A stretch of DNA of 64,000 nt from Desulfomonilia bacterium (GCA_963664325.2 CAXXDQ010000007.1:64001-128000); one strand, 5' to 3'; counted from the first letter of the stretch, positions 24,344 through 42,397 are shown. A program made the numbers and translations. The notes: generated by a model from the letters alone, not told the origin.

Positions 24344-24679
24344 TCAATCTTCTCCCTGTTGATCACATTACATGCAAATAAAATATACTCCTGAACAGGT
24401 CCCGGGTAAATGTCAAATGCCTTTGAAATTACCGGTGGTTGTTGTGCAATTTAAATCATGCCGACTGTCCGGCTTTGCGGGGTTCAAAATGAATCGCCGA
24501 AGTCAACGGAAGCGCAAGTTGAAAGTTCTGCCGAACCAGCCGGGCCCGGCAAAACCCACCGGCGCCATATAGGCTCCGTCCCCTGGGATGTCCATGACCA
24601 CGATTCGGCCGTTTCAGGGGATCGCCGGTTACCAGATGCGCTATGTTGTTCATAGTGAGAGAACTTATATGCCCCGGAT

Positions 24680-25462
24680 TTATTTCCCTGGCGCGAAACT
24701 CACGAGCATATCAGTCTGGGTATCACCGCCGGAGATCGGCATTATAAGCTTGACCATGTAATGGGGTGGTTCGACTGTAAGATATAGATATATCCCGGGC
24801 ACAATCTTTTGAAGCAGCTCAGTGAGAAGCCCCTTGCCTTCTATTATTATTTTCCCCCTGATTGAATAGCATTCGAAGGTCCCGGCGGGAACAGTGATTT
24901 TTTCTTTTCCCTTGACTGTCCATGAGACCCTGGAGAAAGCCTTGGGTCCCCACCAGATGCGGGATTCATGAACCACGCCCGTGGTTTTTAAATCGGCGCC
25001 TCTTTGGAGGAATGTGATAACAGGAGCAGGGTTCATATCCGCCGGAAATTTAAGTGACGGATCGGTAAAATCAACCTCCAGTCTGCTTTCCTGCCTGCCT
25101 GCAGGGGAAATCAAGGTGTCGGTCCAGGATACCACTCTAAACTGAGGATCTTCCCTTATGACGGCCGTCATTTCCTCTTTGCCGCCGCCAGTATGCTGTT
25201 CGGACCTTCGCCAGATGATTCCATCTCCAGTGATCTCAATTTTCTGGGTCCATTGCTGGGGATTATACCTTGCCCTGGTTTCTTCCGCCCATCCGCTGAG
25301 TTTCCCTTTCCTCTCGATTTTTGTTTTGTAAACCGCGGTTTCGCCGTCAGCAAATAGCCGCCCCGCAAATCCTTGCATGGGTATCGACAGGACACATGAC
25401 AGAATGAAGCAGAACATAAATAATGGTCTTGCATGGTATGGCATGGGGCCGGGCTGCTTCAC
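24680..25462 (-). CDS. Exported beta-rich protein, DUF3108-like
   Basis: Signal-like N-terminus and V.GKEKITVPAGTFECY motif. Confidence 0.6.
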   Translation of the reverse strand: MKQPGPMPYHARPLFMFCFILSCVLSIPMQGFAGRLFADGETAVYKTKIERKGKLSGWAEETRARYNPQQWTQKIEITGDGIIWRRSEQHTGGGKEEMTAVIREDPQFRVVSWTDTLISPAGRQESRLEVDFTDPSLKFPADMNPAPVITFLQRGADLKTTGVVHESRIWWGPKAFSRVSWTVKGKEKITVPAGTFECYSIRGKIIIEGKGLLTELLQKIVPGIYLYLTVEPPHYMVKLIMPISGGDTQTDMLVSFAPGK

Positions 25463-26205
25463 TCAGGTTTCAGCACACCGGAGCCGCCGGTCTTTATTTC
25501 GAACATGCCTGGAAGGATTGTCCCGGGCTTCACAAGGTCAGCACTCGGCTCGGATGCGCCTATGGTCACAGTGACAAAACCATAGGTTGTCTTTATCTGC
25601 GGCTTACCTAGTTCGGTTGATTTGACCACCTCCACTTTTGGGCCTTTGGCAGGTGGGACAAGCTGAAACACCGGCCCGCCCAGCTCCCATTTCTCCTTGA
25701 TATAGACCGGCTCATCTTTCACCTCGCCCGGTTTGAATGTCAGCAAGAGCCGCGAAGTCCCTTCATTAATGACTTCGCCGCGCCAGCCGTCGCCGTCAGG
25801 TTCGAGGGTTATCCTGTCCGGAATATTCTTGGGAAACCCCATCTTGCGGCCGCCCCACATGGCCACCCTTTTGGTAACAGGCATGAAGATGCAGTGCCAG
25901 CCTTCCTGGCCCTTGTATGAGGCGCGCAGCACGATATACCCTTCCTGGTATCGGGTAAAAGGCCATGGCCTGACTTCAGTATAATCCACCACTGCGAGGC
26001 CGACCAGGGGGTGCGACGGCATTTCGAACTGCTGCGGAAGAAGCCTGCGGTAAAGCCCGAGGTTGTCGGGTTGAGCAATTGCCATTATCTTCTTATCCGA
26101 TATGAAGTTTCCCTTCTCATTGCATCCGCAAAATAAAAGAATAATTCCGATTACAATAATGATCCCTGCAATTTTCAATGCTTTCGTAAAGAGCCTCCTT
26201 TTCAT
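25459..26205 (-). CDS. Acetoacetate decarboxylase-like (ADC fold) lipoprotein, paralog 1
   Basis: Lipobox-like LFCG|C. LLP..FE, YQEG and MPVT...A..GGR.MGFPK (Schiff-base Lys position). Confidence 0.78.
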   Translation of the reverse strand: MKRRLFTKALKIAGIIIVIGIILLFCGCNEKGNFISDKKIMAIAQPDNLGLYRRLLPQQFEMPSHPLVGLAVVDYTEVRPWPFTRYQEGYIVLRASYKGQEGWHCIFMPVTKRVAMWGGRKMGFPKNIPDRITLEPDGDGWRGEVINEGTSRLLLTFKPGEVKDEPVYIKEKWELGGPVFQLVPPAKGPKVEVVKSTELGKPQIKTTYGFVTVTIGASEPSADLVKPGTILPGMFEIKTGGSGVLKPE

Positions 26206-27299
26206 ATCCAGTTCGCCTTAATCGAACTGAGTTCCGGGACTTTTATGTCTTCAATCGTTATCATGCGCGGATCTGCCTGGCCTATGCCGAGTTCGGCCGA
26301 GCGGTATATCTGCACCTGATCCCATACGCTCTTTTCGACATAGGGCAGACTCACCTTCTTTTCTGTACCGAAAAACTTAAGCACTGCAAGGGCCAGCGAG
26401 TCGCACGCAACCCTGTCCCTGCCCGCAAGTATGAGTCCAGCCTGGACATATACCGGTTTGGCAAGCATGCCGTCAGGGCCTCCATGTACCATTATCCTTG
26501 TGGCATCCACAATATTCAAAGAAGGCTTCGAGCAGAGGTTCAGCTCAGCTATCTTCTCCCCGATATTGTGCTGATGCAGGGCATTCGAGCCTGACTGGAA
26601 GCGGTCCGACGGGTGGCAGACCCCGACGAACGACTTGAGACAGCAGGTGAACTCTGCGTCTGTCACCTGGTGGTTCTTCAGCACCGGCACATTTATCCAG
26701 TGGTCGGCCTCGGAAAGTATCTTCGGCATCCGGAATCCCTTGGTCCAGTAGCGCTGATTAGGCATGAAACGCACATATTCATCGTTGACCCACGGATAGA
26801 GCTCGGCGCCCTCCTCCTGGCATACACGCTCGAAGCCGCACACCTTCATGGTCCTCATGTCAAGCAGGGCCGGCCTGTCGCCGACCATGGCGTGGCATCC
26901 GCGCTCCTTGACAAGCCTTATCACCGCACGTATCACTTCGGGGTTCGTGGTGATATCCTTGTCCGGTCCTGTGGCATTTGGCTTGATCATGACCCTCTGG
27001 CCTTTTTCGAAATCAGGCAGCCCGCCTGCTGCCTCAACCGCCTCGCGGACAGCCTGTTCGATCGAACTGCCGACGCCAGAGATCGCAACAGTGGTTTTAG
27101 GCATGTCCGGGTAGATACGTGTAGGCGCAACAGCCTGAGGACCCGGGTTCGGAAGGGTCGAGATGGCATTGGCAGTGTACCTGAAGAAGCTGCAGGATGA
27201 GGCAAGAACCCCGGCGCCAAGCGCAGTGCTGACAAGAAAACGGCGACGTGTTATGCAATGATCGGATTTCATCCAGAAACCCACTTCCTGAACTTTCAT
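26202..27299 (-). CDS. DUF362 domain protein with Tat lipoprotein signal
   Basis: TRRRFL twin-arginine plus LASS|C lipobox. VMIKPN, TTNPEV, INVPVLKNH, LKSFVG and DRVACD motifs. Confidence 0.85.
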   Translation of the reverse strand: MKVQEVGFWMKSDHCITRRRFLVSTALGAGVLASSCSFFRYTANAISTLPNPGPQAVAPTRIYPDMPKTTVAISGVGSSIEQAVREAVEAAGGLPDFEKGQRVMIKPNATGPDKDITTNPEVIRAVIRLVKERGCHAMVGDRPALLDMRTMKVCGFERVCQEEGAELYPWVNDEYVRFMPNQRYWTKGFRMPKILSEADHWINVPVLKNHQVTDAEFTCCLKSFVGVCHPSDRFQSGSNALHQHNIGEKIAELNLCSKPSLNIVDATRIMVHGGPDGMLAKPVYVQAGLILAGRDRVACDSLALAVLKFFGTEKKVSLPYVEKSVWDQVQIYRSAELGIGQADPRMITIEDIKVPELSSIKANWI

Positions 27300-28084
27300 T
27301 GCTTAGGTTTTTTGATGTCTTCCAGTTTCGTCGGCATCAGGTTCGCGGCGCCCTTGAACTCAGCAAAGAATCCAGGAGATAAGGTGCCTGGCTTGATCAG
27401 TCCGGCCCAGGGTTCGTCAGAGCCGATTGCTATGCTTACCATACCCTGCTTAGCTGTCCAGGCCGGCTGCACCACGTTCACCATTGCCACCTTCTGGAAG
27501 ACTGAGCCCTTGTCCGGCGGCACGAAGAGAAAGACAGGGTCAGCAAGCGCTTTTCCGGGCCCGGCCTCCAATATGGAAGCTTCTGTGGATGTGAGATCCC
27601 GAGTGAGCCCTGGTATGAACTCCAATGAGAGCTTGAGCCGGTCTTTGTCTTTTACCTCACCCTTCCATGTGCTGCCGTCCGCCTCGAGCGATATTTCCTT
27701 GGTCACGTACTTAGGGAAGCCAAGGGCCCGGCCTCCCTGATTGGGCACCCATTTGGTCACCGGCATGGTCTTGCAGTGCCAGCCTTCCTGGCCCTTGTAT
27801 TTGGCCCGCAGGAAAACGGCGCCTTCCTGATAGCGGGTCATGGGCCAGGGATGGACCTCGGTGTAATCGACTACGAACAGCGATACCGCAGGCATCTCCG
27901 GCATTTCAAGGGGAGCTGGGAGAAGTTTTCGGTAGAGTTCGAGGTCGGCCGGCTCCACCATCGTGAAAATTCCATGAAACCCGTGAAAGACCCCATTGGC
28001 TTCTATGTTCTTCTGCTGCCATGCGCAGCCTGAGACCATAAAGATCAGTATGCCTAATACTGTCTGCCATTTCCTGCTTTCCAT
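27296..28084 (-). CDS. Acetoacetate decarboxylase-like (ADC fold) lipoprotein, paralog 2
   Basis: Lipobox VSG|C and GGRALGFPK. Clearly paralogous to 25459..26205 (VDYTEV.PWP.TRYQEG, YKGQEGWHC). GGAGG RBS before ATG 28084. Confidence 0.78.
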   Translation of the reverse strand: MESRKWQTVLGILIFMVSGCAWQQKNIEANGVFHGFHGIFTMVEPADLELYRKLLPAPLEMPEMPAVSLFVVDYTEVHPWPMTRYQEGAVFLRAKYKGQEGWHCKTMPVTKWVPNQGGRALGFPKYVTKEISLEADGSTWKGEVKDKDRLKLSLEFIPGLTRDLTSTEASILEAGPGKALADPVFLFVPPDKGSVFQKVAMVNVVQPAWTAKQGMVSIAIGSDEPWAGLIKPGTLSPGFFAEFKGAANLMPTKLEDIKKPKQ

Positions 28085-28136
28085 CGTTACCTCCACTGTA
28101 TTCTGATTTCAGGGTTCAGTGCTTCAAAAAACATGT

Positions 28137-29621
28137 TCACCCTTTTGCAAAGACCAGGCTGGTTATGCTGCGCCCCGGGAAGGAATATCCCTTTGGCGCA
28201 TCAGAACTCAGTACTCTGTCAAGATTGTGGCTGTCCGAAGTCTCCCATGCCTCAAGCTTTGCATAACCGGCAAACTCCGGCAGGCGCATGAACAGGGGGC
28301 CAGCGCCGTCGTTGATCACCACCAAAACGATTGTCTGGCCGTCGGGTGAGCGGAAGGCACTCGGTTTGAGGTCTGGTTTGGTCGCCTGGGCCGGTATGCG
28401 CATAAAGCCCGGCCGCACAAAGCGGCTGTAATTGCCGAAGGCCCAGAGGCGCTTGGTTTCTGTGACAGCATGGGTGTCCTCATCCACATAGATAAGGCCG
28501 TCGTGGAAGTCGTATTTGGAGACCGCGATCCATAACTGCCAGGATGCAACGTTCCCGAGGGTAAGGTCCTCGTGCATCATGTCCGCCAGTGTAATGGCCG
28601 AATCCATGCCTGTATCGCGGCCTCCGGCCATCTCGCACCACTCGGTCTGCCAGAGCTTCACCTTTGGATACCGGGCCATGATCAGACAGGCCAGCGGCTG
28701 CTTCATGGCAGTGGTTATTCCGGGGCCATAGGAATGAACGGAAAAGCTGTCTAAACCCGCGGCAACATCCGGGTCGGCCATAAGGACATTGAGGTACATG
28801 TCCGCGGCAAACCATGCGCCGGACTCGACTCCGCTGACCCTGACAGGCAGGCCGGCCATGTCAACCGCACTGATGAGAGAGCGCAGTACCTGAACGCATT
28901 CGTCCGGCGTGTAGTGGCAGCCTTCCTGGCCGCCGCGCCAGGCCCACTGCGGCTCATTGATCGGGCTGATCCAGTTGACGGGAACACCTTCGACATCTCT
29001 TAGATGGCTGATCACATCAATAAGGTAGGCAGTGAAATCTTCCACCATGTCCGGCCTGAGGTTGGACCATGGACTGTGCCATATCGAGTCCGGCGTCAGC
29101 GCTGTCATGAGAATATCCTGGATCAGGGACTGGGCCCCCGGATCAATATTACCCTCGGTTGGCAGGTCCTGGCCGGTTGTCAGACCTGAAACGGTCATGC
29201 GGGCCGGAGGGCTGTTGACAAAGGCCAGCAGGTTTTCGACACCATAGGCGTTCGCCTGCCTGAAGAACCACACCCCGCCGGCATCCCGCGACCAGTCATA
29301 TACCCCTTTTGAAACTTCGAAGGTCTCGGTTGCACGCCAGGCATCCCAGATGCCTGCGCCCGGGCCGCCTGCCCCGATGTTGTAGCGGTACACAGACATG
29401 CCGATGCCTTCATTGCGGTCGAAAAGAAGCATGGCGATACGGTTGCGGACCGGGTCCTCCCAGGTGCCTACATACTGTGCCCACCATGCGCCCGATGCTC
29501 CGAAGCCGTCAATGGTCTGCAGGGTCTGCTTCTGGTTTACGATGAGAGAGCCATCAAAGACACATCCGGGTAAAAAGACGGTGAAGATGCAAAACAGAAC
29601 TGCCAGAAGCATCTTTTTCAT
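28137..29621 (-). CDS. Glycoside hydrolase family 30 lipoprotein
   Basis: Lipobox LPG|C. QTIDGFGASGAWW, RYNIG, NSPP, acid/base NEP, nucleophile WQTE and GNYSRFVRPG motifs. Confidence 0.87.
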   Translation of the reverse strand: MKKMLLAVLFCIFTVFLPGCVFDGSLIVNQKQTLQTIDGFGASGAWWAQYVGTWEDPVRNRIAMLLFDRNEGIGMSVYRYNIGAGGPGAGIWDAWRATETFEVSKGVYDWSRDAGGVWFFRQANAYGVENLLAFVNSPPARMTVSGLTTGQDLPTEGNIDPGAQSLIQDILMTALTPDSIWHSPWSNLRPDMVEDFTAYLIDVISHLRDVEGVPVNWISPINEPQWAWRGGQEGCHYTPDECVQVLRSLISAVDMAGLPVRVSGVESGAWFAADMYLNVLMADPDVAAGLDSFSVHSYGPGITTAMKQPLACLIMARYPKVKLWQTEWCEMAGGRDTGMDSAITLADMMHEDLTLGNVASWQLWIAVSKYDFHDGLIYVDEDTHAVTETKRLWAFGNYSRFVRPGFMRIPAQATKPDLKPSAFRSPDGQTIVLVVINDGAGPLFMRLPEFAGYAKLEAWETSDSHNLDRVLSSDAPKGYSFPGRSITSLVFAKG

Positions 29622-29839
29622 ACGTACCTCCTCATGTCCAATGGCCGTTCGTCCCGCTGAAGACAAAAACGGCAAGCACAATCTCCTTTTTATGTCCGTA
29701 GGTCATGAATTACAAGTGTAATCTGATCAAACAGGCAAGAGCCTCGACGATGCCGTGACAGTATGCTATACATAAATTTATTGCGCGATAAGAACCGGTA
29801 AAAAATATTCGCATGCTGTAATGAGGGGGGTTTGAAGAA

Positions 29840-31432
29840 ATGCAGAGAATTATCCACGCATTGATCATATCAGGCATCATCTGTTTTTTTGTCGGCTGCA
29901 GTAGCGGCTCATCCGGTACTGATCCCGCTGACAATAACGGCGGGACAGAAGGCGGCGCCGAATCGGCCTACGACCTCTCTTCACTCTCGGGGGCATGGAT
30001 CCTCGAGTCGGATTCATCTTCCATCCGGCCCTATCTGGTCACTGACGGCCAGGGCATGCTTGCCGATTGCAGCATTGCCGGTGGCGGGTCCGGCACATAC
30101 AGTATAGCCCGGGACGGAGCCTTTATTCTTCATGTCAATGGCGCCGACATCTCAGGCCGGCTGAAGCTTCAATATTCCGGCGCAGGCTCGATCAGCTTCG
30201 ATGATTACGGGGATTGGAATATATCAAAGGTCCGTGACCTTTCCCTCTGCCAGGGCACCTGGCAGGGAACCATCAGCGAAGACGGGAAAACCGTCATATC
30301 GCGGGTCATCATCACCGTTGACAACCAGGGTGTAATCACATCCGCGCAGGGTTTGGATGAGCCGGTTTCCGGCCGGATGGTGAGTGTGGCCGGCAGAGTC
30401 GCAGCTTTTATTGCAGAAGGGGAGGACCGGCATAAACTGGCGATCAAGGCAGCCATGAACGGCGATACCATGAACGGAACGGCGGTTGCTGATTCCGCAT
30501 CGGTAATTGCGGGGATCGTGGCATTGAAGAAAGTTGTCTACAACATGGACAACGCCGTCAGTCTCCTCCTCGAACACTATGGCGTGCGCAAGGGGCTCAT
30601 CATCAACGGAGACGACCTGGCCATGGGGCATTTCACCAATGACGGGATATTTGCAGCCTGGGATGCCGGCGCCATTTCGAGTATATCGCTTTTCACCGTG
30701 AGCTTTCCTTTCACCTCGGACGGACAGCCGCTCACCGGTGATCCTTACGCCGAGGCAATTCAGGGCATACATGCGCGTGAAGGGATCGACGTCGGCTGCC
30801 ACCTGACGCTCAATTCAACCGACGGATTCCTTGTACGGCCGGTCCTGCCTCCCGAGCGGATTCCCACACTCGTCGATGCGGACGGATACCTGAAAACGGA
30901 CCGCCTGGCCTTTCTCTTTGCCTCCCGAGACGAAATCAGGGACGAATGCAGGGCCCAGATCGAGAAGGCCCTGGCCAGCGGCGTGCACCTCTCGCATCTG
31001 GACTGTCATGTTGGCTGGGGTCATTTCCCGGGCTGGCCCAGGGAAGTATATGCCGAACTGGCCGACGAGTACCGCCTGCCTCTGCGCTGGGTGATCCGCT
31101 TTCCTGACGAGCCTCCCCTCATAAATCACAGGGTGCTGGTGCCGACAAACTTCATCATTCTCAACGACTCCGGCATTACGGATGTGACCCAGGAGACCGT
31201 GGAGAAACGCAAGCAGTCCCTGCTCAGGACTCTGCGGAATCTCCCTGACGGCATTACGGAAGTGCTCTGCCACCCGAGCCGCGAAAAGTATGACGACCAG
31301 GCCTGGCGAATCCTTGACTATATGATCGTCACCGATCCCGAGGTCCGTGCCCAGATCGACTCTATGCGCTCATCGGGCGAACTGGTGATGCTAGGTTTCA
31401 ATGACCTGAGAAAGACAATGCAGAGGCTGTAA
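29840..31432 (+). CDS. Lipoprotein with tandem beta-domains and a C-terminal ChbG/YdjC/HpnK carbohydrate deacetylase domain
   Basis: Lipobox FVG|C and Ser/Gly linker. LIINGDDL, GCHLTL, HLDCH and TEVLCHP motifs. Confidence 0.82.
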   Translation: MQRIIHALIISGIICFFVGCSSGSSGTDPADNNGGTEGGAESAYDLSSLSGAWILESDSSSIRPYLVTDGQGMLADCSIAGGGSGTYSIARDGAFILHVNGADISGRLKLQYSGAGSISFDDYGDWNISKVRDLSLCQGTWQGTISEDGKTVISRVIITVDNQGVITSAQGLDEPVSGRMVSVAGRVAAFIAEGEDRHKLAIKAAMNGDTMNGTAVADSASVIAGIVALKKVVYNMDNAVSLLLEHYGVRKGLIINGDDLAMGHFTNDGIFAAWDAGAISSISLFTVSFPFTSDGQPLTGDPYAEAIQGIHAREGIDVGCHLTLNSTDGFLVRPVLPPERIPTLVDADGYLKTDRLAFLFASRDEIRDECRAQIEKALASGVHLSHLDCHVGWGHFPGWPREVYAELADEYRLPLRWVIRFPDEPPLINHRVLVPTNFIILNDSGITDVTQETVEKRKQSLLRTLRNLPDGITEVLCHPSREKYDDQAWRILDYMIVTDPEVRAQIDSMRSSGELVMLGFNDLRKTMQRL

Positions 31433-31461: not shown

Positions 31462-32595
31462 TCACGAGAAGAAGAGCCGGTAGACAGGCCACATGATCAC
31501 GGTCCCGAAAAGCCTTTTGATCGAGTACATATTTTTCAAGGGCAGCCTCTCTGAAACGCCCGGCACCCTTCTGATCTCGCCGGTTCCGGCCTGGTACCAG
31601 TAGGCCGTGCTGGACCAGTCGTCCCAGCGGCGGTTGGCGTGGCCGTGCTCGATAGAGACGCGGATCGAGCTTTTAAACGGTACCGGATCGAGGATGTGGT
31701 AGCGGTAATAGGTTATCTTTCCGCCCCAGTTCGGCCCGCCCCCCATGATGAGCCCGTGATACGGGGCGCAGTAATACTGCGTAGGGCAGAACGCCATGTT
31801 TACATAGTCCTCGGTGCCGGTGCCGTGGATATCTGGAGGGAAGGGCTCGTTATCGACGAAGATCATGTCATCTCCCTCTCCGGGCCAGTCCCAGAACCAT
31901 GAACCGCGGCGGTTGTGGATATTGATATTGCAGCCCACATAGTGGCCTTTACCCTGGGTTTCAAGGATCAGGTAATTGTCCCTGTCGGAAAGATTGGCGC
32001 CTTCCATCTGGAAGGCCATGCCCCCGACGCCTTTGTCTGAGATGCCTTTTGTAAGTTCCCGGTTCCAGGATGCATGGAAGCGGAGGATATTATCCTCAAT
32101 GCCGTCATAGCGGTCCCAGTCGATATAATAATAAAGGGATATCTCATGGGTGCACTCGTTTTCCACCTCAACCCTCGCTCCTTTTGAAAAAGGCATGGGG
32201 AAGAAGCAGTTGAAGCCACGGCCGTTTTCAGGACTCATCTGAAGCGGCGCCGAGACGAAGTTTTTGCATATCCCATGGCCCATTCCGAAGAAGTCTCCCA
32301 CAGGCGCTTCCACGGCCGGTTTGTCGGAGCCGTCCCAGAACATCCGGATGACGATTCTGCGCAGGAAGGCCCGGTCGTATTTGTTGGAGATGCCGTCCCT
32401 GCCTATGGTGCACCAGATGTGCCTGATGCAGCCCGGCTCAGCTGTTTCGGCAATGGTTGAACACTGCCCGGGGTTGATGACAATCCAGTCATGGTTGCCG
32501 CCTGTCCTGTCGAAGCTGCTGAAGCGCTTGCGCCTGAAATCCTTCGCGAGCGGTAAAAGGTTCAGTGATGAGGTCATGTCATAACCGGCTGCCAT
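31462..32595 (-). CDS. Glycoside hydrolase family 172 (DUF2961; alpha-D-arabinofuranosidase/alpha-D-fructofuranosidase type)
   Basis: SSFDRTGGN.D, GCIRHIW, P.GDFFG, NCFFPMPF, GHYVG, GEGDDMIF and HGTGTEDY motifs. Confidence 0.92.
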   Translation of the reverse strand: MAAGYDMTSSLNLLPLAKDFRRKRFSSFDRTGGNHDWIVINPGQCSTIAETAEPGCIRHIWCTIGRDGISNKYDRAFLRRIVIRMFWDGSDKPAVEAPVGDFFGMGHGICKNFVSAPLQMSPENGRGFNCFFPMPFSKGARVEVENECTHEISLYYYIDWDRYDGIEDNILRFHASWNRELTKGISDKGVGGMAFQMEGANLSDRDNYLILETQGKGHYVGCNINIHNRRGSWFWDWPGEGDDMIFVDNEPFPPDIHGTGTEDYVNMAFCPTQYYCAPYHGLIMGGGPNWGGKITYYRYHILDPVPFKSSIRVSIEHGHANRRWDDWSSTAYWYQAGTGEIRRVPGVSERLPLKNMYSIKRLFGTVIMWPVYRLFFS

Positions 32596-32608
32596 ATCGC
32601 ATCTCCTT

Positions 32609-34198
32609 TTATGAAGGTTTATAAAGGCTTTTCCCGCCCCGGTCCCAGATCGTATAGCCTATGCCGAGCTGCTCCGAGAGTTCGACAAGATGCGGCAGGT
32701 AGTCGCCGTAGACAAAGCCGAGATGATTGGATGGCCACCTGGAGCTTATTACCCTGTCGCTGACCGGGATGGTCCCTTCGATTATGGGCCAGGCCTCGTT
32801 GTAGGCCTTGTGTCTCGAGGCCTTGACATCCCTGGTGTCCATGATGGTTGCGACCATGTGAAGGCGGTTGTTCTCGACACCAAGCCGTGCAACCGTGATG
32901 ACCTGTTTTCCTGCGGTCCGCATGCGCACGGCGGAACCTCCTGCATGGTAGAAGTGCTCCTGGGCCGGGAATTCAACCTGGGAAAGCTTCTCGGCCCAGA
33001 TCTGGTTTTCACTGCCGGCAAAGGCGGGCGGATGCTGGCCGCAGTTGACTATGGCCAGGACGGTTGTGTCCCTGTCTGTCTTTACATACCTGAAATCGCC
33101 GAAGCCGGCAGGTTTGCCTGAGAGCCTGAAAAGGAAAAGCTGCGTTAAAAGCGTGGGCAGGTCGGTCTCGCATGAAGACGGGATAATCTGTTTGCATTTG
33201 CCGTCGGTCCCGTAGTCGTTGGCCAGGAATGCTGTTGCAATACAGCATGTGCAGTAATTCGCCGAGCACTCGTCCTGGCATTTTATCGTAACCGCAGTAG
33301 CCCCGCGTTCGCCTGCGATGTCTGCTATTGCATAATAGATCGCAAGCTGAAGGAGGAACTTGTCGCGCGAAACGCTGCGGGACGGGATTGCCCTGAATTT
33401 TTCCGGGAATGCGTCGTAAAGGGCCTTGCAGTCCTTTTTCACCCGGCTGTCAAGCACTGTGGTGATGTCTGATTTTCCAGGTGTACCGGACCAATCGAAC
33501 ATCTCGAACGCCCTGTCGAGAAAGACCTGCTGGTCGAGGTTTTCACCCGAAATTCCCCACCGGCCCATAATTTCCTCATGATCTATCCGGGTTGTCGGCA
33601 TCTGAAGTGAAAATGATCCGAATTCCAGCAAGTGTTCCATTGAAAGATTCGCAACAACCTTGTGCACCTGCTTGTTGACCCGGGCCATTGAGGTATAGAA
33701 AGAGATGGCTTCCCTGAGGTCGTTAAAGAAACCGCCACTGTCAAAATATCCGGCTTTATGGACAAAGGATATGCCGGTCTGGGTGAGCGCCCCTCCCAGG
33801 GCCATACCTGAGACCATGCCCGGCACATTGGTATCCTGTATGGAGGCGATGATGATCCTCGGGACAAAAGCGGGATCAATGGCCTTTTTCCCTCTGATGA
33901 AGCCGGTGATCACCTTCTGGCTCAACTGCGGGAATGTCCATGTCTGATGGACGTTTATGAGTATGGCGCAGTCCTTTTCGGCGAAAATGGCCGCGTATTT
34001 GTTTGCGAGCGGTATGCTGTGGCAGAGCAGGTTCTTTTTCCCGAGCTGTTCGCCTGGGTAAACGATATCAAAGCCCGCCTTTCTCAGGCGCATGACAAAT
34101 TTTTCGAGGATTTTGGCATCGGTCCCGGCACTCTGTTCCATTACCCAGGGTCTAGGGTCATAGCCTGAAAAAACTCCGATCCTGACAGATTTATTCAT
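32609..34198 (-). CDS. L-fucose/D-arabinose isomerase-like (FucI family) aldose-ketose isomerase
   Basis: SCETD, FGDFR, NCG, T.ARL and WPSNH match the FucI metal-ligand motifs ATEND/FADVR/WGANH as recalled. Divergent overall. AGGAG RBS before ATG 34198. Confidence 0.75.
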   Translation of the reverse strand: MNKSVRIGVFSGYDPRPWVMEQSAGTDAKILEKFVMRLRKAGFDIVYPGEQLGKKNLLCHSIPLANKYAAIFAEKDCAILINVHQTWTFPQLSQKVITGFIRGKKAIDPAFVPRIIIASIQDTNVPGMVSGMALGGALTQTGISFVHKAGYFDSGGFFNDLREAISFYTSMARVNKQVHKVVANLSMEHLLEFGSFSLQMPTTRIDHEEIMGRWGISGENLDQQVFLDRAFEMFDWSGTPGKSDITTVLDSRVKKDCKALYDAFPEKFRAIPSRSVSRDKFLLQLAIYYAIADIAGERGATAVTIKCQDECSANYCTCCIATAFLANDYGTDGKCKQIIPSSCETDLPTLLTQLFLFRLSGKPAGFGDFRYVKTDRDTTVLAIVNCGQHPPAFAGSENQIWAEKLSQVEFPAQEHFYHAGGSAVRMRTAGKQVITVARLGVENNRLHMVATIMDTRDVKASRHKAYNEAWPIIEGTIPVSDRVISSRWPSNHLGFVYGDYLPHLVELSEQLGIGYTIWDRGGKSLYKPS

Positions 34199-34227
34199 TA
34201 TATCAGCTCCTTTACTAATATTATCGA

Positions 34228-35916
34228 TCAAGAGGAACTCATAGTATTACTCGCACGTTTAAGCTCAAGAAGTTGTTTCATTGCCGGGTAAAGATAATTA
34301 TCCTTTTTTCCAGTCCCGAAGGCTCCTTGAAGTTCAAGGTATATTCCATACAGCTTTTCATAAACCTGCGCCTCATGTGCATCGGGCTTGAAGCTGCGGC
34401 GGGGCGGGGCGATCATGCACCTGCGGGCTTCGTCAAAATCCCTGTGAATGCCGGATGCGACACCTGCCGCAATTGCCGCGCCCAGGGCCGGGGCGTTTGA
34501 AGAAGAGGCGACATAAACCGGCATATTGAAGATGTCGGCATATATCTGCATGAATAGTGTGTTCTTTTCAGCTATTCCACCGCAGCAAATGATATGCTCG
34601 ATAGGTACTTTGTATTCTTTAAGACGCTCTATGATCACCCTTGCTCCGAAGCCTGTCGCCTCTATGAGGGCGCGATATGTTTCCGCAGGAGTTGTCGAAA
34701 GCATCTGTCCCAGGATGAGGCCGCTCAGCCTCTGGTCCATGAGAATATTCCTGTTTCCGTTCATCCAGTCCAGGGCGATTAGACCTGTCTGTCCCGCCCT
34801 GTATTTTGAGGCCTTCTCTGTAAGTTCCCGGTGTATCTTTTCATCAGGCGAAGACCCATCGCGGAAAAGCGCTCTGTTGACATACCAGTTCAGGATGTCG
34901 CCGACGGCGGCCTGTCCGGCTTCAACACCGGAAAAGCCAGGAATTATCCCGTCACTTACAACGCCGCTTATTCCCGGGATCGCCTTGATGCCTGAACCTG
35001 CCGGCAGGAGCGCCATGTCGCATGATGACGTTCCTATGTTTTTAACCAGACTCCCGGGTGCTATGCCTGCGCCGATGGCACCGGCATGCGCATCGATCAG
35101 CCCTGCCGCTATGACGCAATCATCGGGCAGGCCCCAGTGCATGGTCAATGATTGACGCATATGGCCGATGCTTCGTCCGGCCGGGACGACCACCGAAGGA
35201 AGCCCTGCCGCAATGCGTTCAAGCTCGGGTGAAAGCATTGCAAGTTTTGCCGGTTCAGGGTAGCCGTTATTAAACATGTCCTTGTATCCGGCGGCACAGG
35301 CGTTTCTCTTGATATCCCGGAAATCCGTGATTCCGGCCAGGTATGCCGGGATGAAATCCGAGAGTTCAACCCACGTCGCCGCCATGTTTGCTGTTTCAGG
35401 CGAGATCCTGGCGCAGCGCAGAATTTTCGCCCAGAACCATTCGGGCGAGTACCAGCCGGAGTAGGAATCAAGCCAGTCAAGGCCTTGATCTTTAACATAG
35501 CGGATGATTTCATCGGCTTCGTCATGTGCGCTGTGGTCTTTCCAGAGCCAGGCCATCGCATTGATATCGTCTGCAAGTTCCCGCCTCAAGCAGAGTGGAC
35601 GGGCGTCATCGCCTAGAGGCAAAGGCGTACTGGCCGTTGTATCGACGCCGATCGCCTTTACCTGATCGCGGCTGAATCCTGGCATCAGCTCGGCCTTCTG
35701 AAGCAGCGCATCAACGACTGCAAGCAGTCCTTCGACATAGTCAGCAGGGTACTGCCTTGCTACAAATGGGTTGTTATCGTCGCCAATCACCCCGGCCAGG
35801 CCGTAACAATAATTATAGACGCTGCTGCAAACCTCTTCCCCGGTAAAGGCGTCGACAAGCAAGGCCCTTACCGAATTGGTCCCGAAATCGATCCCTATGA
35901 CATGAGGATTCATCAA
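34228..35916 (-). CDS. araB: Ribulokinase (FGGY family, AraB-type)
   Basis: IGIDFGTNSVRA, GVDTTAST, LWKDH.A, YS.EWFWAK, AAGYK, EAGQAAVGD and LDW.NGNR motifs. Confidence 0.9.
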   Translation of the reverse strand: MMNPHVIGIDFGTNSVRALLVDAFTGEEVCSSVYNYCYGLAGVIGDDNNPFVARQYPADYVEGLLAVVDALLQKAELMPGFSRDQVKAIGVDTTASTPLPLGDDARPLCLRRELADDINAMAWLWKDHSAHDEADEIIRYVKDQGLDWLDSYSGWYSPEWFWAKILRCARISPETANMAATWVELSDFIPAYLAGITDFRDIKRNACAAGYKDMFNNGYPEPAKLAMLSPELERIAAGLPSVVVPAGRSIGHMRQSLTMHWGLPDDCVIAAGLIDAHAGAIGAGIAPGSLVKNIGTSSCDMALLPAGSGIKAIPGISGVVSDGIIPGFSGVEAGQAAVGDILNWYVNRALFRDGSSPDEKIHRELTEKASKYRAGQTGLIALDWMNGNRNILMDQRLSGLILGQMLSTTPAETYRALIEATGFGARVIIERLKEYKVPIEHIICCGGIAEKNTLFMQIYADIFNMPVYVASSSNAPALGAAIAAGVASGIHRDFDEARRCMIAPPRRSFKPDAHEAQVYEKLYGIYLELQGAFGTGKKDNYLYPAMKQLLELKRASNTMSSS

Positions 35917-35939
35917 GCCACCTTTGATTAAAGCCTTAA

Positions 35940-37325
35940 CTATCCCTCACATTGCCTGCCAAGTTTGATATCTTCAACCATTTTTTTGTGCAGGGCATCA
36001 TTGATGGGATAGAACAGGATGATGACGATACCTGCAACAATGAAGATGAACGGCACAACCGACATGAGCAGTTTGATTCCGAACAGCGTTGACGCCTGCT
36101 GATTTATGTTGGGGACATACTTGTAGAATTCCAGTCCGAGGCCTGCTGCAAAACCGGCGAAAGCGGCGGCGAACTTGAAGGAGAAGTTGTAAAACCCGTA
36201 GAGGATGCCTTCGCGCCTGAGCCCTGTCTTCCACTGCGAGTATTCAACGGTATCCGGGACCATTGCCCACGGGCACAGATAAAGGGTCGATATCCCGAAT
36301 CCTGCAAACGTGAACAATCCGAAGATGAAGCCCCTGCTCGGCGCACTGAGGATGAAGAGAGACAATGTGACCAGGGCGATCAGGGTTGTTCCAATGGCGA
36401 GCACGTTCTTCTTGGCGAATTTCTTGGTCATGAATACCCAGAAGGGCATGCACACGAATGCCGTCACAAACATGCACATGAAGGCAATCGGGACATCCTT
36501 TTCCACGCCGAGGTTATATTTGAAGTAGTAATTCAGCATGATGGCAAGCAGGCTTATAGCAGCCATCTGCAGTATCGTCGATATCGTCAGGATGATGAAG
36601 GGGCCGTTTTTTGAAACCATTTTCAGGTCTTCACAGAATGACATCCGCTCTTCAGACGGCGGCTTAACACGCTCCTTGACACTGGCAAACGTGGTCAGGA
36701 GCACGACCGCGAAGACGCAGCCGAATATGGCGCCTGTCATCCTGAAGCCGGTAACCTCATTAGGAAACAGAGCTATCAGCGGTTTGGCGGCGCCCGCAGT
36801 GACGAGGGTTCCGAGTATGGCGCATGCCATTCTGATGCCGGTCAGCGTCGAGCGCTCGTTCCCGTCCATGGTCATGCTGGCGGTCAGTGCGCCATAGGGT
36901 ATGGTCACCATGGAATAAAGCGCCGAAAACAGGAGGAAGGTCACCAGTGCATAAACAGAGCGCCAGAGGGTAGGAATCTGCGGAGCGAAGAAGATCAGGA
37001 AAAACATGAACCCGACGGGGATGGCCCCGAAAAGCAGGAAAGGCCTGTTGCGTCCCCACCGCGAATGGGCCCGGTCCGCAATGAAACCCATTGTCGGGTC
37101 GCATACGGCATTCCATATCTTTGCTATGAAGAATATGGAGCCCGCGGCGGTTGCTCCTATCATGAACACGTCGGTGAAAAAATACACGAGGTACAGGGTG
37201 ATTGACTGGAACACCAGGTTGAATGCGAAATCTCCGATGCCGTAGCCGACCTTCATCCCGAGCGGGATTTTTTCAGCCGGGGCGTTTTCTGTCTGAACGG
37301 GCGTGTCCTTGGCATTTTCTTCCAT
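35940..37325 (-). CDS. MFS glycoside-pentoside-hexuronide (GPH) sugar:cation symporter
   Basis: GYGIGD, DP.MG.IADR..SRWGR.RPF, PYGAL, ER and DTVEY..W.TG.R.EG motifs. Confidence 0.93.
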   Translation of the reverse strand: MEENAKDTPVQTENAPAEKIPLGMKVGYGIGDFAFNLVFQSITLYLVYFFTDVFMIGATAAGSIFFIAKIWNAVCDPTMGFIADRAHSRWGRNRPFLLFGAIPVGFMFFLIFFAPQIPTLWRSVYALVTFLLFSALYSMVTIPYGALTASMTMDGNERSTLTGIRMACAILGTLVTAGAAKPLIALFPNEVTGFRMTGAIFGCVFAVVLLTTFASVKERVKPPSEERMSFCEDLKMVSKNGPFIILTISTILQMAAISLLAIMLNYYFKYNLGVEKDVPIAFMCMFVTAFVCMPFWVFMTKKFAKKNVLAIGTTLIALVTLSLFILSAPSRGFIFGLFTFAGFGISTLYLCPWAMVPDTVEYSQWKTGLRREGILYGFYNFSFKFAAAFAGFAAGLGLEFYKYVPNINQQASTLFGIKLLMSVVPFIFIVAGIVIILFYPINDALHKKMVEDIKLGRQCEG

Positions 37326-37568: not shown

Positions 37569-37595
37569 TTGATGTTTAACGTTGGGTGTTATATT
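37569..37595 (+). promoter_or_regulatory. Putative higBA promoter/operator
   Basis: TTGATG ... TG-n-TATATT extended -10, overlapping an imperfect palindrome TAAC...GTTA. No SD before higB, consistent with a leaderless transcript. Confidence 0.45.
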
Positions 37596-37604
37596 TTTAT
37601 GTCC

Positions 37605-37883
37605 ATGATCAAATCCTTTAAATGCAGGTATACTCAATCAATATTTGAAGGTAAATGTCCGAAACAATTTAAGGCTTTTGAATCAGTTGCAGAAAGAAAA
37701 TTGCAAATGTTGGATTCTGCAAAGACGATTGATGATTTGAAAAGTCCGCCCGGCAACCGACTGGAACAGTTAAAGGGGAATAGGGCAGGCCGGTGGAGCA
37801 TCAGGATAAATGATCAATTCAGACTGTGTTTTCAATTCGAAAACGGTGAAGCATGTCAGGTGGAGATAGTGGATTATCACTAG
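37605..37883 (+). CDS. higB: HigB (RelE/ParE-family, plasmid maintenance killer) toxin
   Basis: MIKSFK...RKLQMLDSA...DL..PPGNRLE.L.G.R.G.WSIRINDQ.R.CF...VEIVDYH. Confidence 0.95.
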   Translation: MIKSFKCRYTQSIFEGKCPKQFKAFESVAERKLQMLDSAKTIDDLKSPPGNRLEQLKGNRAGRWSIRINDQFRLCFQFENGEACQVEIVDYH

Positions 37884-37894
37884 GGAGGCAGTAC

Positions 37895-38200
37895 ATGGAA
37901 ATAAAAAACAAAATGAGGCCGATTCATCCCGGGGAAATATTAAGAGAGGAGTACCTTATACCGCTTGGAATGAGCGCACACGCTCTTGCGCTTGAGCTGA
38001 AGGTTCCGGCTCCGCGCATCAACGATATTGTCCGGGAGCGACGATCAATAACACCTGAAACAGCGCTCAGGCTTGGCCGTTATTTTAACACCTCACCGGA
38101 ATTCTGGCTAAACCTTCAGATAGTTTATAATCTGAAAATCGCCAAGAAAGAGCTGGGCTCGAAGATCGATAAGGAAGTACAGATTCGCAAAGCCGCTTGA
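37895..38200 (+). CDS. higA: HigA addiction module antitoxin (XRE HTH)
   Basis: PIHPGEILREEYL, RINDIV and ITPETALRL..YF.TSPEFWLNLQ motifs. GGGAGG RBS. Confidence 0.95.
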   Translation: MEIKNKMRPIHPGEILREEYLIPLGMSAHALALELKVPAPRINDIVRERRSITPETALRLGRYFNTSPEFWLNLQIVYNLKIAKKELGSKIDKEVQIRKAA

Positions 38201-39675: not shown

Positions 39676-41943
39676 CTATTTGGAGACCATCCTTTTGTCT
39701 AAGGTGGTCATCTTCCTGATGCCGTCATCCGTCACCACATAGCAGTCTTCAACTCCGATTAGGGTGTTCCCGAAGCTTTCCCAGGCCTCGATCTCGAAAA
39801 CCATGCCCTTCTCGTAAGTCCTGTCCAGGAAGCCCATTGTGCCGAAAAGGTGAGTTTCTTCGCATTCGAGGCCTATTGTATGCCCGACTGCGAACGTCAT
39901 GCCGTCCGGTTTTATGGTCTTGTAGTAGGCTATGGCCTCGTCGTTCAGTTCCTTGACGCTGACTCCCGGCTTGACGCGCTTTTCGAAATATTCCTGCAGG
40001 AGGATGAGCCTGTCAACGAGGCCCGCAGCCTCGTCAGGCACTCCACCTATGACCACGTGGCGGTTGACGTCCGCAACATATCCCTTGCAGATTGCCCCGA
40101 AGTCGAAACGCACTATATCGCCGTTCTTGACCTCCCTTCCCGTGCCCGGGAGTTCGGGATCGGAATCACCTATGCTCATTGTGAGATGGTCCCAGCCCAC
40201 AAGCCCCTCGTCCACGAACACTCTGCGCGCTATTTTAAGGAAGTCATTGTCGGTCATGCCGGCTTTGGCGGCCTCAATGCAGGCGGTGATAGCCTTTTCG
40301 GTAATAAGGGTGGCCTTCTCTATACAGGCAATCTCCTCGTCGCTCTTTATGATCCTCAGGTCCACCATGACCCCGTCGGCCGAGACTATTTCCGAATCCG
40401 GGTTCTTGTATGCGATATGGTCGGTTATATATTTGGGTGCAACGGACTCGACGCCTATGCGCTTGCCTACAAGTCCCCACTTCTTGATCTTCGACCATAT
40501 CTCGCGCCTGACATCCTTCTGGCTGCTTATGTCCCTGTGCTCAGCCACCCAGCATATATCGTCCACGCTCCTGAACAGTCCCCAGTTGAGAAGCATGACA
40601 TCACCTTCGCGCTTCATCATGGCGACGCTAGGGTACTGGTTATTGAGCGCGAAAAGGATCGGGTTGGCCTCGGCGTGCAGCACCGGCAGCCCCGTGAGAT
40701 AGTATATGTTAACGGGCGACGTTGCTATGAAGAGATCGAGATCGTACTTCTCCATTATTTCGGCGGCGCGTTTTTTATTGAATCCGAGGGACTTCATGCG
40801 TTTCACCTCCGGCAAATTTTTATTTATGGGGATATGAAGGTTAAGGTCTTCGAGAAGGGATAATGTGCCTTTCTCCTTTGCCAGCGAGAAAAGCTCGTCC
40901 CTGGCAGCGGCCCTGCCAGTATGCGCCGAGAGGTATCCCATAAGAACTCCGGCAATAGCGCTTTTCGCATCTTCGGGTGTGAACTCGGGCTCTTTGTTTT
41001 CAAGGATGCATCTGGCGAAATGCTCGTCTGCATGCCTTACCGATATGGTATAATACCTGGGAAACGGCTCGTGCTCGATGTCGGGCTCGAACCATTTCTG
41101 TTTGTTTTCACCCATGGTCTCGTGGTGCGAGAATATCTTTACCGGCTTATCCCACATGTGGTTTTCGAGTATGGTGCCCTTGGTACCGTATATCTCGAGG
41201 CTGTTGAAAGGCGGGGTTATCTGCGTGAAGCTTACCGTTATGTCGGCTATGGGTCCGCCCGCGAACCTGACCATTGAAAGCGCGTTGTCTTCGGCCTTTT
41301 CCGGCAGGTTGATCGCCTGTTTCGCGAGCATGGCTGTGACTGACTCGACCCTGTCGTTCAGTATCCATTCGATTGCAGCGAACTTGTGCGCGGCCATGTC
41401 GATGAACGAGCCGCCTCCCGCCTTGAGAGGGTCGCCTTTCCAGAAATCAGGTATGCTGAGGCCCGGTATCTCATTCACCCCCTCGTAAGCCCTCACGAGA
41501 AGAACTTCTCCGATGAGCCCCTGCTGAACGGCGTCATGCATGTATCTGTGCGCCGGGAGAAATCGGTGGTTTTCTGCGATCATCAGCTTGACGCCAGCCT
41601 TTCTGGCCGCATCTATCATCATGTCGCAACCCTCGATCGTGGTAGCCATGGGCTTTTCGCAGAGCACGTGCTTTCCGGCTGCTGCGCATTTCGCTACGAT
41701 GCCCTCGTGATACATGTGCGGTACGAGCACAAGTACGGCGTCTATGTCACTTTTAAGGAACTCCTCAAGACTGGCATATGCAGTCATCTCGTTCGTACGG
41801 TAGCGTCTGGCCATCTTCCTGGCCTGCTTGATGTTGACATCGTATATGGCCGTGAATTTTATGAATTCGGATCCGGCGCATGCATTGCTGTGAAAGCTCC
41901 AGGCGCCGCCCCCTCCTATGACTCCGCATTTGACGTGGTTCAT
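39676..41943 (-). CDS. Fusion: Gfo/Idh/MocA NAD-dependent oxidoreductase plus M24 (Xaa-Pro peptidase/creatinase fold) hydrolase
   Basis: N-half has GVIGGG, HVLCEKPM, AENHRF and GGGSFIDMAAH. C-half has NIYYLTG, LRIIKS.EEI, DFG...GY.AD, GHTIG, FEIE and GVED. AAGGAG RBS before ATG 41943. Confidence 0.87.
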   Translation of the reverse strand: MNHVKCGVIGGGGAWSFHSNACAGSEFIKFTAIYDVNIKQARKMARRYRTNEMTAYASLEEFLKSDIDAVLVLVPHMYHEGIVAKCAAAGKHVLCEKPMATTIEGCDMMIDAARKAGVKLMIAENHRFLPAHRYMHDAVQQGLIGEVLLVRAYEGVNEIPGLSIPDFWKGDPLKAGGGSFIDMAAHKFAAIEWILNDRVESVTAMLAKQAINLPEKAEDNALSMVRFAGGPIADITVSFTQITPPFNSLEIYGTKGTILENHMWDKPVKIFSHHETMGENKQKWFEPDIEHEPFPRYYTISVRHADEHFARCILENKEPEFTPEDAKSAIAGVLMGYLSAHTGRAAARDELFSLAKEKGTLSLLEDLNLHIPINKNLPEVKRMKSLGFNKKRAAEIMEKYDLDLFIATSPVNIYYLTGLPVLHAEANPILFALNNQYPSVAMMKREGDVMLLNWGLFRSVDDICWVAEHRDISSQKDVRREIWSKIKKWGLVGKRIGVESVAPKYITDHIAYKNPDSEIVSADGVMVDLRIIKSDEEIACIEKATLITEKAITACIEAAKAGMTDNDFLKIARRVFVDEGLVGWDHLTMSIGDSDPELPGTGREVKNGDIVRFDFGAICKGYVADVNRHVVIGGVPDEAAGLVDRLILLQEYFEKRVKPGVSVKELNDEAIAYYKTIKPDGMTFAVGHTIGLECEETHLFGTMGFLDRTYEKGMVFEIEAWESFGNTLIGVEDCYVVTDDGIRKMTTLDKRMVSK

Positions 41944-41962
41944 GTCGGACTCCTTATAAAGA

Positions 41963-42397
41963 TTATTCCAGTTCGTCCTGGACGATGTCCAGGATGGTCC
42001 TGAAGACCAGGGCGTCGTTGATGATACCATCAACCTTGAGCTCTCCGTTCATGTAGGCGGCGGTGGGGTCCACTGCTCCTGAGAATATGCCGACGGCAAG
42101 AGAGGAGCTCATGTCCAGGGTTATGTCAGGCGCGGATATTTCTCCGGAGCCCATGGAAAATTTAAGGTTTTCGACCTTCATCCATGCATAGGGCTTGCCG
42201 TCGATCCTGTACTGGAATTTCCTGTTAAAGCCTTCGACTTCGTCCTGGATATCTTCCGTGAAGTTGCAGAGCTGAGTGAATACTGCGAAAAAATCGGGCA
42301 GGTCATTTATCGAAAATGTGTTTTCCTCGATTTTATCCAGAACTGAATCCTTTAATGCCTGGTCCACCGGAATATTGCTTTCAATCAGCCATTGCAT
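41963..42397 (-). CDS. SCP2 sterol-binding domain protein
   Basis: PDITL, G.VDPT.AYM.G.LKVDG.I.DAL C-terminal SCP2 signature. AGGAGG RBS. Confidence 0.85.
   Translation of the reverse strand: MQWLIESNIPVDQALKDSVLDKIEENTFSINDLPDFFAVFTQLCNFTEDIQDEVEGFNRKFQYRIDGKPYAWMKVENLKFSMGSGEISAPDITLDMSSSLAVGIFSGAVDPTAAYMNGELKVDGIINDALVFRTILDIVQDELE

Follow-up and report, generated by a model that had tools for sequence, protein, structure and literature searches.

Operon layout

We analysed a 64,000-nucleotide (nt) stretch of DNA from a Desulfomonilia bacterium (GCA_963664325.2, CAXXDQ010000007.1:64001-128000), which is called the window below. Four co-directional open reading frames (ORFs) on the minus strand fill its positions 31462-37325 and form what we regard as a real and ordinary-looking catabolic operon. 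An initial annotation of this DNA had named the same four genes, and each of them is present at its place on the minus strand. The genes and the region upstream of them are:

35940..37325, minus strand: glycoside-pentoside-hexuronide:cation symporter (GPH) permease, 461 amino acids (aa); TIGR00792, Pfam MFS_2
34228..35913, minus strand: AraB-type ribulokinase of the FGGY family, 561 aa from the ATG at 35913; NF003154
32609..34198, minus strand: divergent FucI-clade aldose-ketose isomerase, 529 aa; Fucose_iso_C, Fucose_iso_N1 and fold
31462..32595, minus strand: GH172 (DUF2961) glycoside hydrolase, 377 aa; PF11175
37326..37568, minus strand: upstream intergenic region, presumed promoter/operator, between the operon and the divergent higBA pair

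The genes had been described as tightly spaced, and the gaps between them indeed measure 26, 29 and 13 nt, with an AAGGAG-like Shine-Dalgarno motif at each. The kinase ORF extends over 34228-35916, with the ATG at 35913 as the likelier start from the reading of the junction. For the isomerase, whose ORF spans 32609-34231, the ATG at 34198 is the likelier start and yields 529 aa, matching the length of the database homologues. The permease scored 356.9 bits on TIGR00792 (cut-off 231.35) and 303 bits on Pfam MFS_2. Since it stayed under all substrate-specific equivalog cut-offs (YagG, UidB, MelB), we left its substrate unassigned.

Upstream, the operon is bordered by a divergent gene pair encoding a HigB-like toxin and an HTH_3 antitoxin (37569-38200, plus strand), a neighbour that fits an accessory region. 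Downstream it is bordered by a convergent gene with a YdjC-like domain. In the upstream intergenic region, the palindrome CCGGG-TTAT-CCCGG (37367-37354) lies between TTGACA (37377-37372) and TATAAT (37346-37341), two hexamers that, read off the sequence, stand 25 nt apart. Consensus scans returned six promoter sites versus a mean of 6.0 in shuffled sequences, and eight terminator sites versus 7.7, that is, no excess in either case; we therefore claim no regulatory element. Four sequencing runs, all from one sample, contain this stretch, and no RNA run is listed among them.

A separate clade of FucI-like isomerases

The third gene of the operon had been annotated as a divergent FucI-family isomerase. 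The adjective is justified, since its Pfam matches are weak (Fucose_iso_C 38.8 bits, cut-off 29.3; Fucose_iso_N1 34.2 bits, cut-off 28) and no NCBIfam model matched. Fucose_iso_N2 was not reported in the Pfam scan, and the AraA family models of Pfam and NCBIfam had no match in the protein. Database homologues are labelled only 'L-fucose isomerase-like' or hypothetical; of 8000 candidates that were scored, 282 proteins had E<=0.001. A single-sequence phmmer search of the PDB returned nothing relevant, the best match being a lipoprotein at E 0.5. With a profile built from 23 homologues, the same database gave a FucI (2e-9), the D-arabinose isomerase 3a9r (5.9e-9) and, at 7.8e-7, E. coli FucI; AraA chains were missing from its matches up to an E of 10.

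Run on 1.84 billion cluster representatives, this profile retrieved 450 proteins with E<=0.001, 64 of them with E<=1e-30. Scores above 340 bits came from only about four full-length representatives; below them followed a tail of FucI-like proteins of about 470 aa, and a 591-aa protein, the canonical FucI length, reached about 85 bits. So few high-scoring representatives followed by a weak tail indicate that the isomerase family is small and distinct.

Structure comparison pointed in the same direction. The AlphaFold (AF2) model of the isomerase has a pLDDT of 91.6, and Foldseek ranked the Bacillus pallidus D-arabinose isomerase 3a9r first (3.6e-26), followed by L-fucose isomerases and then by AraA (about 1e-21). 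In VIA-align, Z scores were 37.3-38.5 to seven FucI/D-arabinose isomerase entries versus 27.8-31.6 to AraA entries. The model aligned over 469-480 residues with 6k1g, 1fui, 4c20 and 3a9r (root-mean-square deviation 8.8-9.1), corresponding to the full-length three-domain FucI fold, at sequence identities to solved FucIs of 14-17%. In the profile alignment, its motifs sCEtD, GfGDfRy and WPsNH stand opposite atEnD, ifaDvRt and WgaNH of 4c20/4c21. We take the catalytic and metal-binding residues of E. coli FucI to be E337, D361 and H528; in the isomerase family, E344, D368 and H492 (numbering of the window protein) are invariant in all 75 homologues of at least 450 aa, five shorter ORFs having been dropped. 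By these comparisons, the isomerase appears to fall on the FucI side of the superfamily, in a clade of its own. FucI enzymes act on L-fucose and D-arabinose, which have the C2-C4 configuration in common.

Two further FucI-like paralogues of about 490 aa are encoded elsewhere in the host genome, each with a glycosidase beside it (G000:C4:192315-195673, L097:5443-11673; G000:C3:908335-909801, L096:6292-9801). One is accompanied by a GH42 beta-galactosidase, a class II aldolase of the fructose-bisphosphate/tagatose-bisphosphate type, a PfkB kinase and a DeoR regulator, a set that may form a route from galactose to tagatose. Beside the second paralogue lies a GH5 gene.

The GH172 glycosidase

The last gene of the operon matched PF11175 with 266.9 bits (cut-off 27) over profile positions 1-235 of 235. 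Its closest solved relatives were BACUNI_00161 (4kq7, 2.2e-75), alphaFFase1 of Bifidobacterium dentium (7v1v, 1.2e-68), DgGH172c (DG02479; 8ah3, 1.7e-64) and ExoMA1 (8ic8, 7.3e-28). GH172 is single-copy in the 4.3 Mb host genome and absent from all 14 control genomes, which makes chance adjacency negligible. The initial annotation had placed the enzyme in the cytoplasm; in agreement with this, no hydrophobic signal segment was seen at its N-terminus by inspection.

In phmmer alignments, E240, E262 and D263 of the window protein correspond to E233, E254 and D255 of DgGH172c and to E270, E291 and D292 of alphaFFase1. The three of DgGH172c are the residues mutated by Al-Jourani et al. (PMC10115798), and the other three are the catalytic acid/base, the nucleophile and the adjacent Asp of alphaFFase1 (PMC8605356); here and below, articles cited by such identifiers are drawn on in excerpts. 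All 27 isomerase-linked GH172 proteins counted, each 300 aa or longer, keep the catalytic residues; a single shorter ORF was left out. Cys270 of the window enzyme is also present in 4kq7 and in DgGH172c, a D-arabinofuranosidase; alphaFFase1 has Gly at this position. According to Kashima et al., a Cys at this position would clash with fructofuranose in the -1 subsite (PMC8605356). Residues E85 and K147 of the +1 subsite of alphaFFase1, needed for inulobiose and not for para-nitrophenyl alpha-D-arabinofuranoside (PMC8605356), are opposite gaps in the window protein.

These positions bear on whether the operon serves alpha-D-fructofuranosides or difructose dianhydrides (DFA), with the isomerase and kinase acting on an unrelated sugar. 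Such a system would resemble that of B. dentium, and alphaFFase1 is the second-best solved match of our enzyme. Like the window protein, this founding member of GH172 is cytoplasmic and signal-less, carries the same Glu/Glu/Asp and is encoded beside a transporter; its operon partners, however, are a GH32 enzyme and an ATP-binding cassette (ABC) transporter for fructans (PMC8605356). Neither GH32 nor a fructokinase is present in our operon. The protein lacks equivalents of E85 and K147, on which the use of inulobiose and DFA I depends, Cys replaces the Gly that leaves room for fructose, and a conserved pairing of pentulose kinase and aldose isomerase (see below) would have no role in fructose use. 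We consider a fructofuranoside system very improbable, and propose the window GH172 as a putative cytoplasmic exo-alpha-D-arabinofuranosidase.

The kinase

The FGGY kinase scored 577 bits on the ribulokinase model NF003154 (cut-off 428) and 499.7 bits on the stricter TIGR01234, under its cut-off of 583. Its PDB match was the ribulokinase 3qdk, AraB of Bacillus halodurans (3.5e-109). We take A96, W126, K208, D274 and E329 to be the L-ribulose contacts of this enzyme, and in the phmmer alignment the window kinase is identical to it at all five; A96 is named in PMC12307932. E. coli AraB phosphorylates D-ribulose in vitro and in vivo and supports the use of D-arabinose and D-ribulose (PMC6452873, PMC12307932); its kcat differs little among the four 2-ketopentoses (PMC6452873, citing Lee et al. 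2001). Zhang et al. 2011 trace the D-ribulokinase RbtK to an AraB branch (PMC3245297).

Conserved neighbourhood in bacteria and archaea

We then looked at the surroundings of isomerase relatives, using one genome per species. The scan found 98 relatives, of which 80 loci were kept. Neighbours were counted with hidden Markov models (HMMs) built from neighbour clusters, within 7 kb for the FGGY kinase, and the genes of our window were searched with tblastn. Among the 41 loci with at least 3 kb on both sides, an FGGY kinase was present in 28 (adjacent in 23), GH172 in 22 (adjacent in 16), both in 19 and neither in 10. Across all 80 loci, many of them truncated, the corresponding numbers were 45, 28, 23 and 30. 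No other neighbour family, including ABC and MFS transporters, LacI regulators and unrelated genes, occurred in more than nine loci.

Loci with GH172 carry the labels Bathyarchaeia, Planctomycetota, Acidobacteriota, Actinomycetota, Chloroflexota, Spirochaetota, Leptospirales and 'Bacteriovoracaceae'. Many of the 80 loci come from related Bathyarchaeia and are thus not independent; still, at least eight phylum-level labels are found among the GH172-positive ones. In Bathyarchaeia the order is GH172-isomerase-kinase, with genes overlapping or abutting. Two related loci (L013 and L014, isomerase identity 81-82%) have exactly the gene order of the window, GPH permease included; they are the only two of the 80 in which the permease keeps its position. 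Thus, the linkage of GH172, isomerase and pentulose kinase is conserved. The arrangement exceeds chance: the order recurs in L013 and L014, and the triad recurs across distant phyla.

The kinase itself differs between lineages. We sampled 12 of the 45 partner kinases for a family scan: five were AraB-type (over the NF003154 cut-off), four were FGGY pentulose kinases over the TIGR01315 cut-off, two, both from Bathyarchaeia, were XylB-like (334-344 bits, below the cut-off of 380), and one was ambiguous. None of the 12 was FucK-like. The TIGR01315 group reportedly includes D-ribulokinases (Singh et al. 2017). The partner kinase thus seems to have been replaced non-orthologously between lineages yet to have remained a pentulose kinase by family assignment, and such displacement speaks for a ketopentose, phosphorylated at C5, as what the isomerase makes.

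Host genome and lineage

The initial annotation had noted that araA, araD, fucA and fucK are missing from the window. We found the only FGGY kinase of the window to be that of the operon, and the absence of AraA extends to the whole genome: the AraA_N domain (PF02610) had no match across the host genome, which is 95.6% complete, in a search that was positive in five control genomes. All four class II aldolase genes of the host lie outside the window. One is a RhaD in a rhaD-rhaB-rhaA cluster, one stands beside 1-phosphofructokinase, and the remaining two are attached to fusions of FGGY kinase and 2-hydroxyacid dehydrogenase. A genome-wide look for araD, proposed along with the initial annotation, found none of the four over an AraD cut-off (best araD scores 72-88 bits).

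Five other genomes have an AraB-type kinase beside an isomerase homologue. In all five, whose completeness is not given, AraA_N was likewise without a match, and no gene passed the araD cut-off (best 82.8 bits). The association of AraB with araA and araD known from the L-arabinose regulon was thus found neither in the host nor in any of the five further genomes that carry the pair. Class II aldolase (AraD-like) genes occurred in two of the 80 related loci. Rpe is present in the host genome (255 bits). A second Rpe-like stretch (G000:C8:118584-119154) is fragmented, with three in-frame TGA in one match, and may be a pseudogene or need another reading.

As for the two fusions (G000:C3:997280-1000674, L008:7280-10674; G000:C4:294273-298106, L010:6273-10106), in both of which the dehydrogenase is of the D-2-hydroxyacid type, one has 888 aa and is followed by a separate class II aldolase gene, and the other has 1277 aa, with the aldolase fused as a third domain. 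The aldolase domains of both systems are below all curated cut-offs.

The isomerase occurs in two of three other genomes of the host genus, in 0 of 33 genomes from the other genera of the family and in 0 of 24 from the sister family. Thus, the cassette is accessory within the host lineage, a distribution that fits horizontal acquisition rather than a lineage trait. The initial annotation had called such an operon unexpected in this lineage; 'accessory' is the better word, as the cassette is common in anaerobic Bathyarchaeia, Planctomycetota and Chloroflexota.

A probable route for D-arabinofuranosides

Taken together, we read the operon as probably encoding a catabolic route from alpha-D-arabinofuranosides via D-arabinose and D-ribulose to D-ribulose-5-phosphate. 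The GPH symporter would take up small D-arabinofuranosyl glycosides or oligosaccharides, from which the cytoplasmic, retaining GH172 enzyme would release D-arabinose. The metal-dependent FucI-clade isomerase would then convert D-arabinose to D-ribulose, and the AraB-type kinase would phosphorylate the latter at C5. The resulting D-ribulose-5-phosphate could enter the pentose phosphate pathway via the host Rpe, with no need for a 4-epimerase. This is essentially the pathway of the initial annotation, which stands as the best-supported reading of the locus in view of the missing AraA and AraD, the FucI-like isomerase and the conserved linkage. We infer every substrate and product in it, as well as all enzymatic steps.

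Several observations weigh against this D-arabinofuranoside route. The isomerase clade has no characterised member, and its fold and catalytic triad leave the substrate unfixed. In 10 of the 41 loci with full flanks, the isomerase has neither partner. Of the 27 isomerase-linked GH172 proteins, just 18 have Cys270. The nearest solved structure, 4kq7, belongs to a GH172 that is uncharacterised in its turn, and the family's substrate range has been explored only in part. The kinase looks like an ordinary AraB, by its residues one that does not discriminate between D and L: with all five L-ribulose contacts kept, it cannot by itself tell the two forms apart. Two class II aldolase-family proteins of the host reached 153 and 103 bits on the L-ribulose-5-phosphate 4-epimerase subfamily model (cut-off 251) and could in principle be epimerases. 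No GH183 endo-D-arabinanase or GH116 gene was found among the 18 ORFs scanned around the operon. A DUF4185-like protein encoded on another contig (see below) matched only 4hbs among PDB sequences (3.2e-4), and no GH183 structure at E up to 1.

The AraB-type kinase with its L-ribulose contacts is what an L-arabinose route would call for. In such a route, the FucI-like protein would replace AraA, whose fold it has in common, the kinase would be a true L-ribulokinase, an unrecognised class II aldolase-family epimerase encoded elsewhere, such as the 153-bit protein, would complete the pathway, and GH172 would cleave an L-arabinoside or be unrelated. However, profile and fold of the isomerase are nearer to FucI than to AraA. 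AraD-like genes accompany it in so few of the 80 loci, and no gene passes the araD cut-off in any of the six genomes with the AraB-type pair. In other lineages the partner kinase is TIGR01315-type or XylB-like instead of AraB, and the excerpts of PMC10509167, PMC10115798 and PMC8605356 report no GH172 activity on L-arabinofuranosides. We therefore consider an L-arabinose route quite unlikely, though not as improbable as the fructofuranoside system.

A further alternative, unlikely in our view but the strongest of the three, is another, unrecognised furanoside, whose aldose would resemble the FucI substrates in shape or give another ketopentose; a pentofuranoside of D-lyxo or L-xylo configuration and an L-fuco- or L-galactofuranoside are examples. 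The partly mapped substrate range of GH172 and a closest structure with no known substrate leave space for it, as do the XylB-like kinases of Bathyarchaeia and the similar kcat of the E. coli enzyme on four 2-ketopentoses (PMC6452873). On the other hand, the close GH172 relatives are demonstrated to hydrolyse only alpha-D-arabinofuranosides and alpha-D-fructofuranosides in the excerpts of PMC10115798 and PMC8605356. Neither a FucK-type kinase nor a FucA aldolase was found with the isomerase, which argues against 6-deoxyhexoses, and the AraB-type and TIGR01315 kinases point to ribulose. Whatever likelihood is left beyond the D-arabinofuranoside route and these three alternatives is unassigned.

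The initial annotation had also suggested a search for GH183. Part of the answer is the DUF4185-like gene mentioned above, the only one of the host genome (G000:C3:1013879-1015057, L009:3879-5057; 50 bits, cut-off 39.5). Its product, P0274, has a signal peptide, GGDG and FGDS motifs and two Asp 18 positions apart. Given the weak match and the GH183 structures missing from its PDB search, we do not call it an endo-D-arabinanase, though no other GH183-like candidate is present in the genome. DUF4185 had no hit among the related loci (0 of 80). The host genome also carries two DUF608/GH116-like genes, both away from the operon.

Relation to known systems

The order of reactions from GH172 via an isomerase and a kinase to D-ribulose-5-phosphate is not new, as it was proposed in 2023 for D-arabinan loci. 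Shimokawa et al. 2023 drew the route from D-arabinan via D-arabinose to D-ribulose-5-phosphate, with isomerase and kinase, for a GH172-containing Microbacterium locus (Fig. 9b of PMC10509167), and in Dysgonomonas gadei the GH172-isomerase-kinase scheme is supported by proteomics (PMC10115798). Like the window, the locus of Microbacterium arabinogalactanolyticum and PUL42 of D. gadei combine a GH172 exo-alpha-D-arabinofuranosidase with an isomerase and a kinase (PMC10509167, PMC10115798). The Microbacterium GH172 acts inside the cell, after oligosaccharide import (PMC10509167). Both loci are large, however, with GH183 endo-arabinanases, GH116 and ABC or Sus transport, whereas ours consists of four genes, takes up its substrate by a GPH symporter and lacks an endo-enzyme. 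For D. gadei, a 'predicted fucose isomerase' is described; ours falls in a separate clade of about 530 aa, for which NCBIfam has no model and the FucI domains of Pfam give scores of only about 35-39 bits.

E. coli offers a second comparison. In E. coli B, a D-ribulokinase, DarK, is inserted in the fuc locus, and FucI-type isomerisation is followed by FGGY phosphorylation at C5, as we propose for the window (PMC12307932). The AraB-assisted use of D-arabinose and D-ribulose in E. coli K-12 and enterohaemorrhagic E. coli (EHEC) resembles the AraB-type step (PMC12307932, PMC6452873). The substrate of these enzymes is the free sugar, and they are borrowed from operons for fucose and L-arabinose, whereas the genes of the window have an operon of their own, along with a glycosidase and a permease of the glycoside type. 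The araBAD operon shares with the window an AraB-type kinase adjoining an isomerase of the AraA/FucI superfamily; unlike araBAD, the window lacks an AraA-family isomerase, and neither the locus nor the genome has a recognisable AraD. Our GH172 stands where GH43 or GH51 L-arabinofuranosidases would in L-arabinose systems.

Krupovic et al. 2022 noted FGGY kinases near DUF2961 and DUF2961 in Bathyarchaeota; the word 'isomerase' is absent from their main text (PMC8812541). In the literature, we found no report of the isomerase family, of its linkage to GH172 or of the spread of the cassette into Bathyarchaeia. What is new here is the isomerase family and a compact, widely spread cassette. We tentatively propose that the FucI-like proteins of about 530 aa may be a new, dedicated family of D-arabinose isomerases, which together with GH172 and an interchangeable pentulose kinase may make up a small cassette that moves horizontally and is present in Bathyarchaeia, Planctomycetota, Chloroflexota, Actinomycetota, Acidobacteriota, Spirochaetota and the host lineage.

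Alpha-D-arabinofuranosides are currently seen as a speciality of mycobacterial and corynebacterial walls and of a few glycans. If our proposal is true, in anoxic sediments and soils they would be in wide use as a source of carbon, and the guild of consumers would be far larger than the gut Bacteroidota and actinobacteria studied so far. The breakdown of D-arabinan was first explained enzymatically in 2023, and downstream catabolism is still drawn as 'isomerase plus kinase'. Our locus is a minimal, easily cloned four-gene version of D-arabinoside catabolism, and the conserved partners of the isomerase family yield a specific, testable prediction, the conversion of D-arabinose to D-ribulose. If it holds, GH172, isomerase and pentulose kinase would be a marker set for D-arabinoside consumers in metagenomes, Bathyarchaeia included, and the family would provide a new enzyme for the rare-sugar chemistry of D-ribulose. 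Should it fail, the conserved triad would still be the mark of a furanoside pathway yet to be recognised.

Other genes in the window and genome

The convergent gene downstream of the operon (29840-31432, plus strand) ends 30 nt from the GH172 gene. Its product has 530 aa, of which residues 253-507 form a YdjC-like carbohydrate deacetylase domain, while the N-terminal part of about 250 residues is without a family match. A co-directional run on the minus strand (21761-29681) encodes an 860-aa glycyl-radical enzyme (PFL2/3 subfamily) that stays under all equivalog cut-offs. The other products of the run are a DUF3108-like and a DUF362 protein, two proteins resembling acetoacetate decarboxylase and a GH30-like hydrolase. 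The genes for the YdjC-domain protein and the GH30 enzyme were considered as members of the operon and rejected, as neither had a tblastn match in the 80 related loci and the former is convergent.

Close to the DUF4185-like gene, a molybdopterin oxidoreductase/formate-dehydrogenase-like gene (L009:742-3483, G000:C3:1010742-1013483) consists of two same-frame ORFs of 370 and 538 aa with one stop between them, as would usually be seen with a selenocysteine codon. The window also encodes a 785-aa protein (39676-42033, minus strand) of unusual architecture, in which a GFO/IDH/MocA oxidoreductase (inositol-dehydrogenase-like) is fused to a creatinase/M24 peptidase domain.

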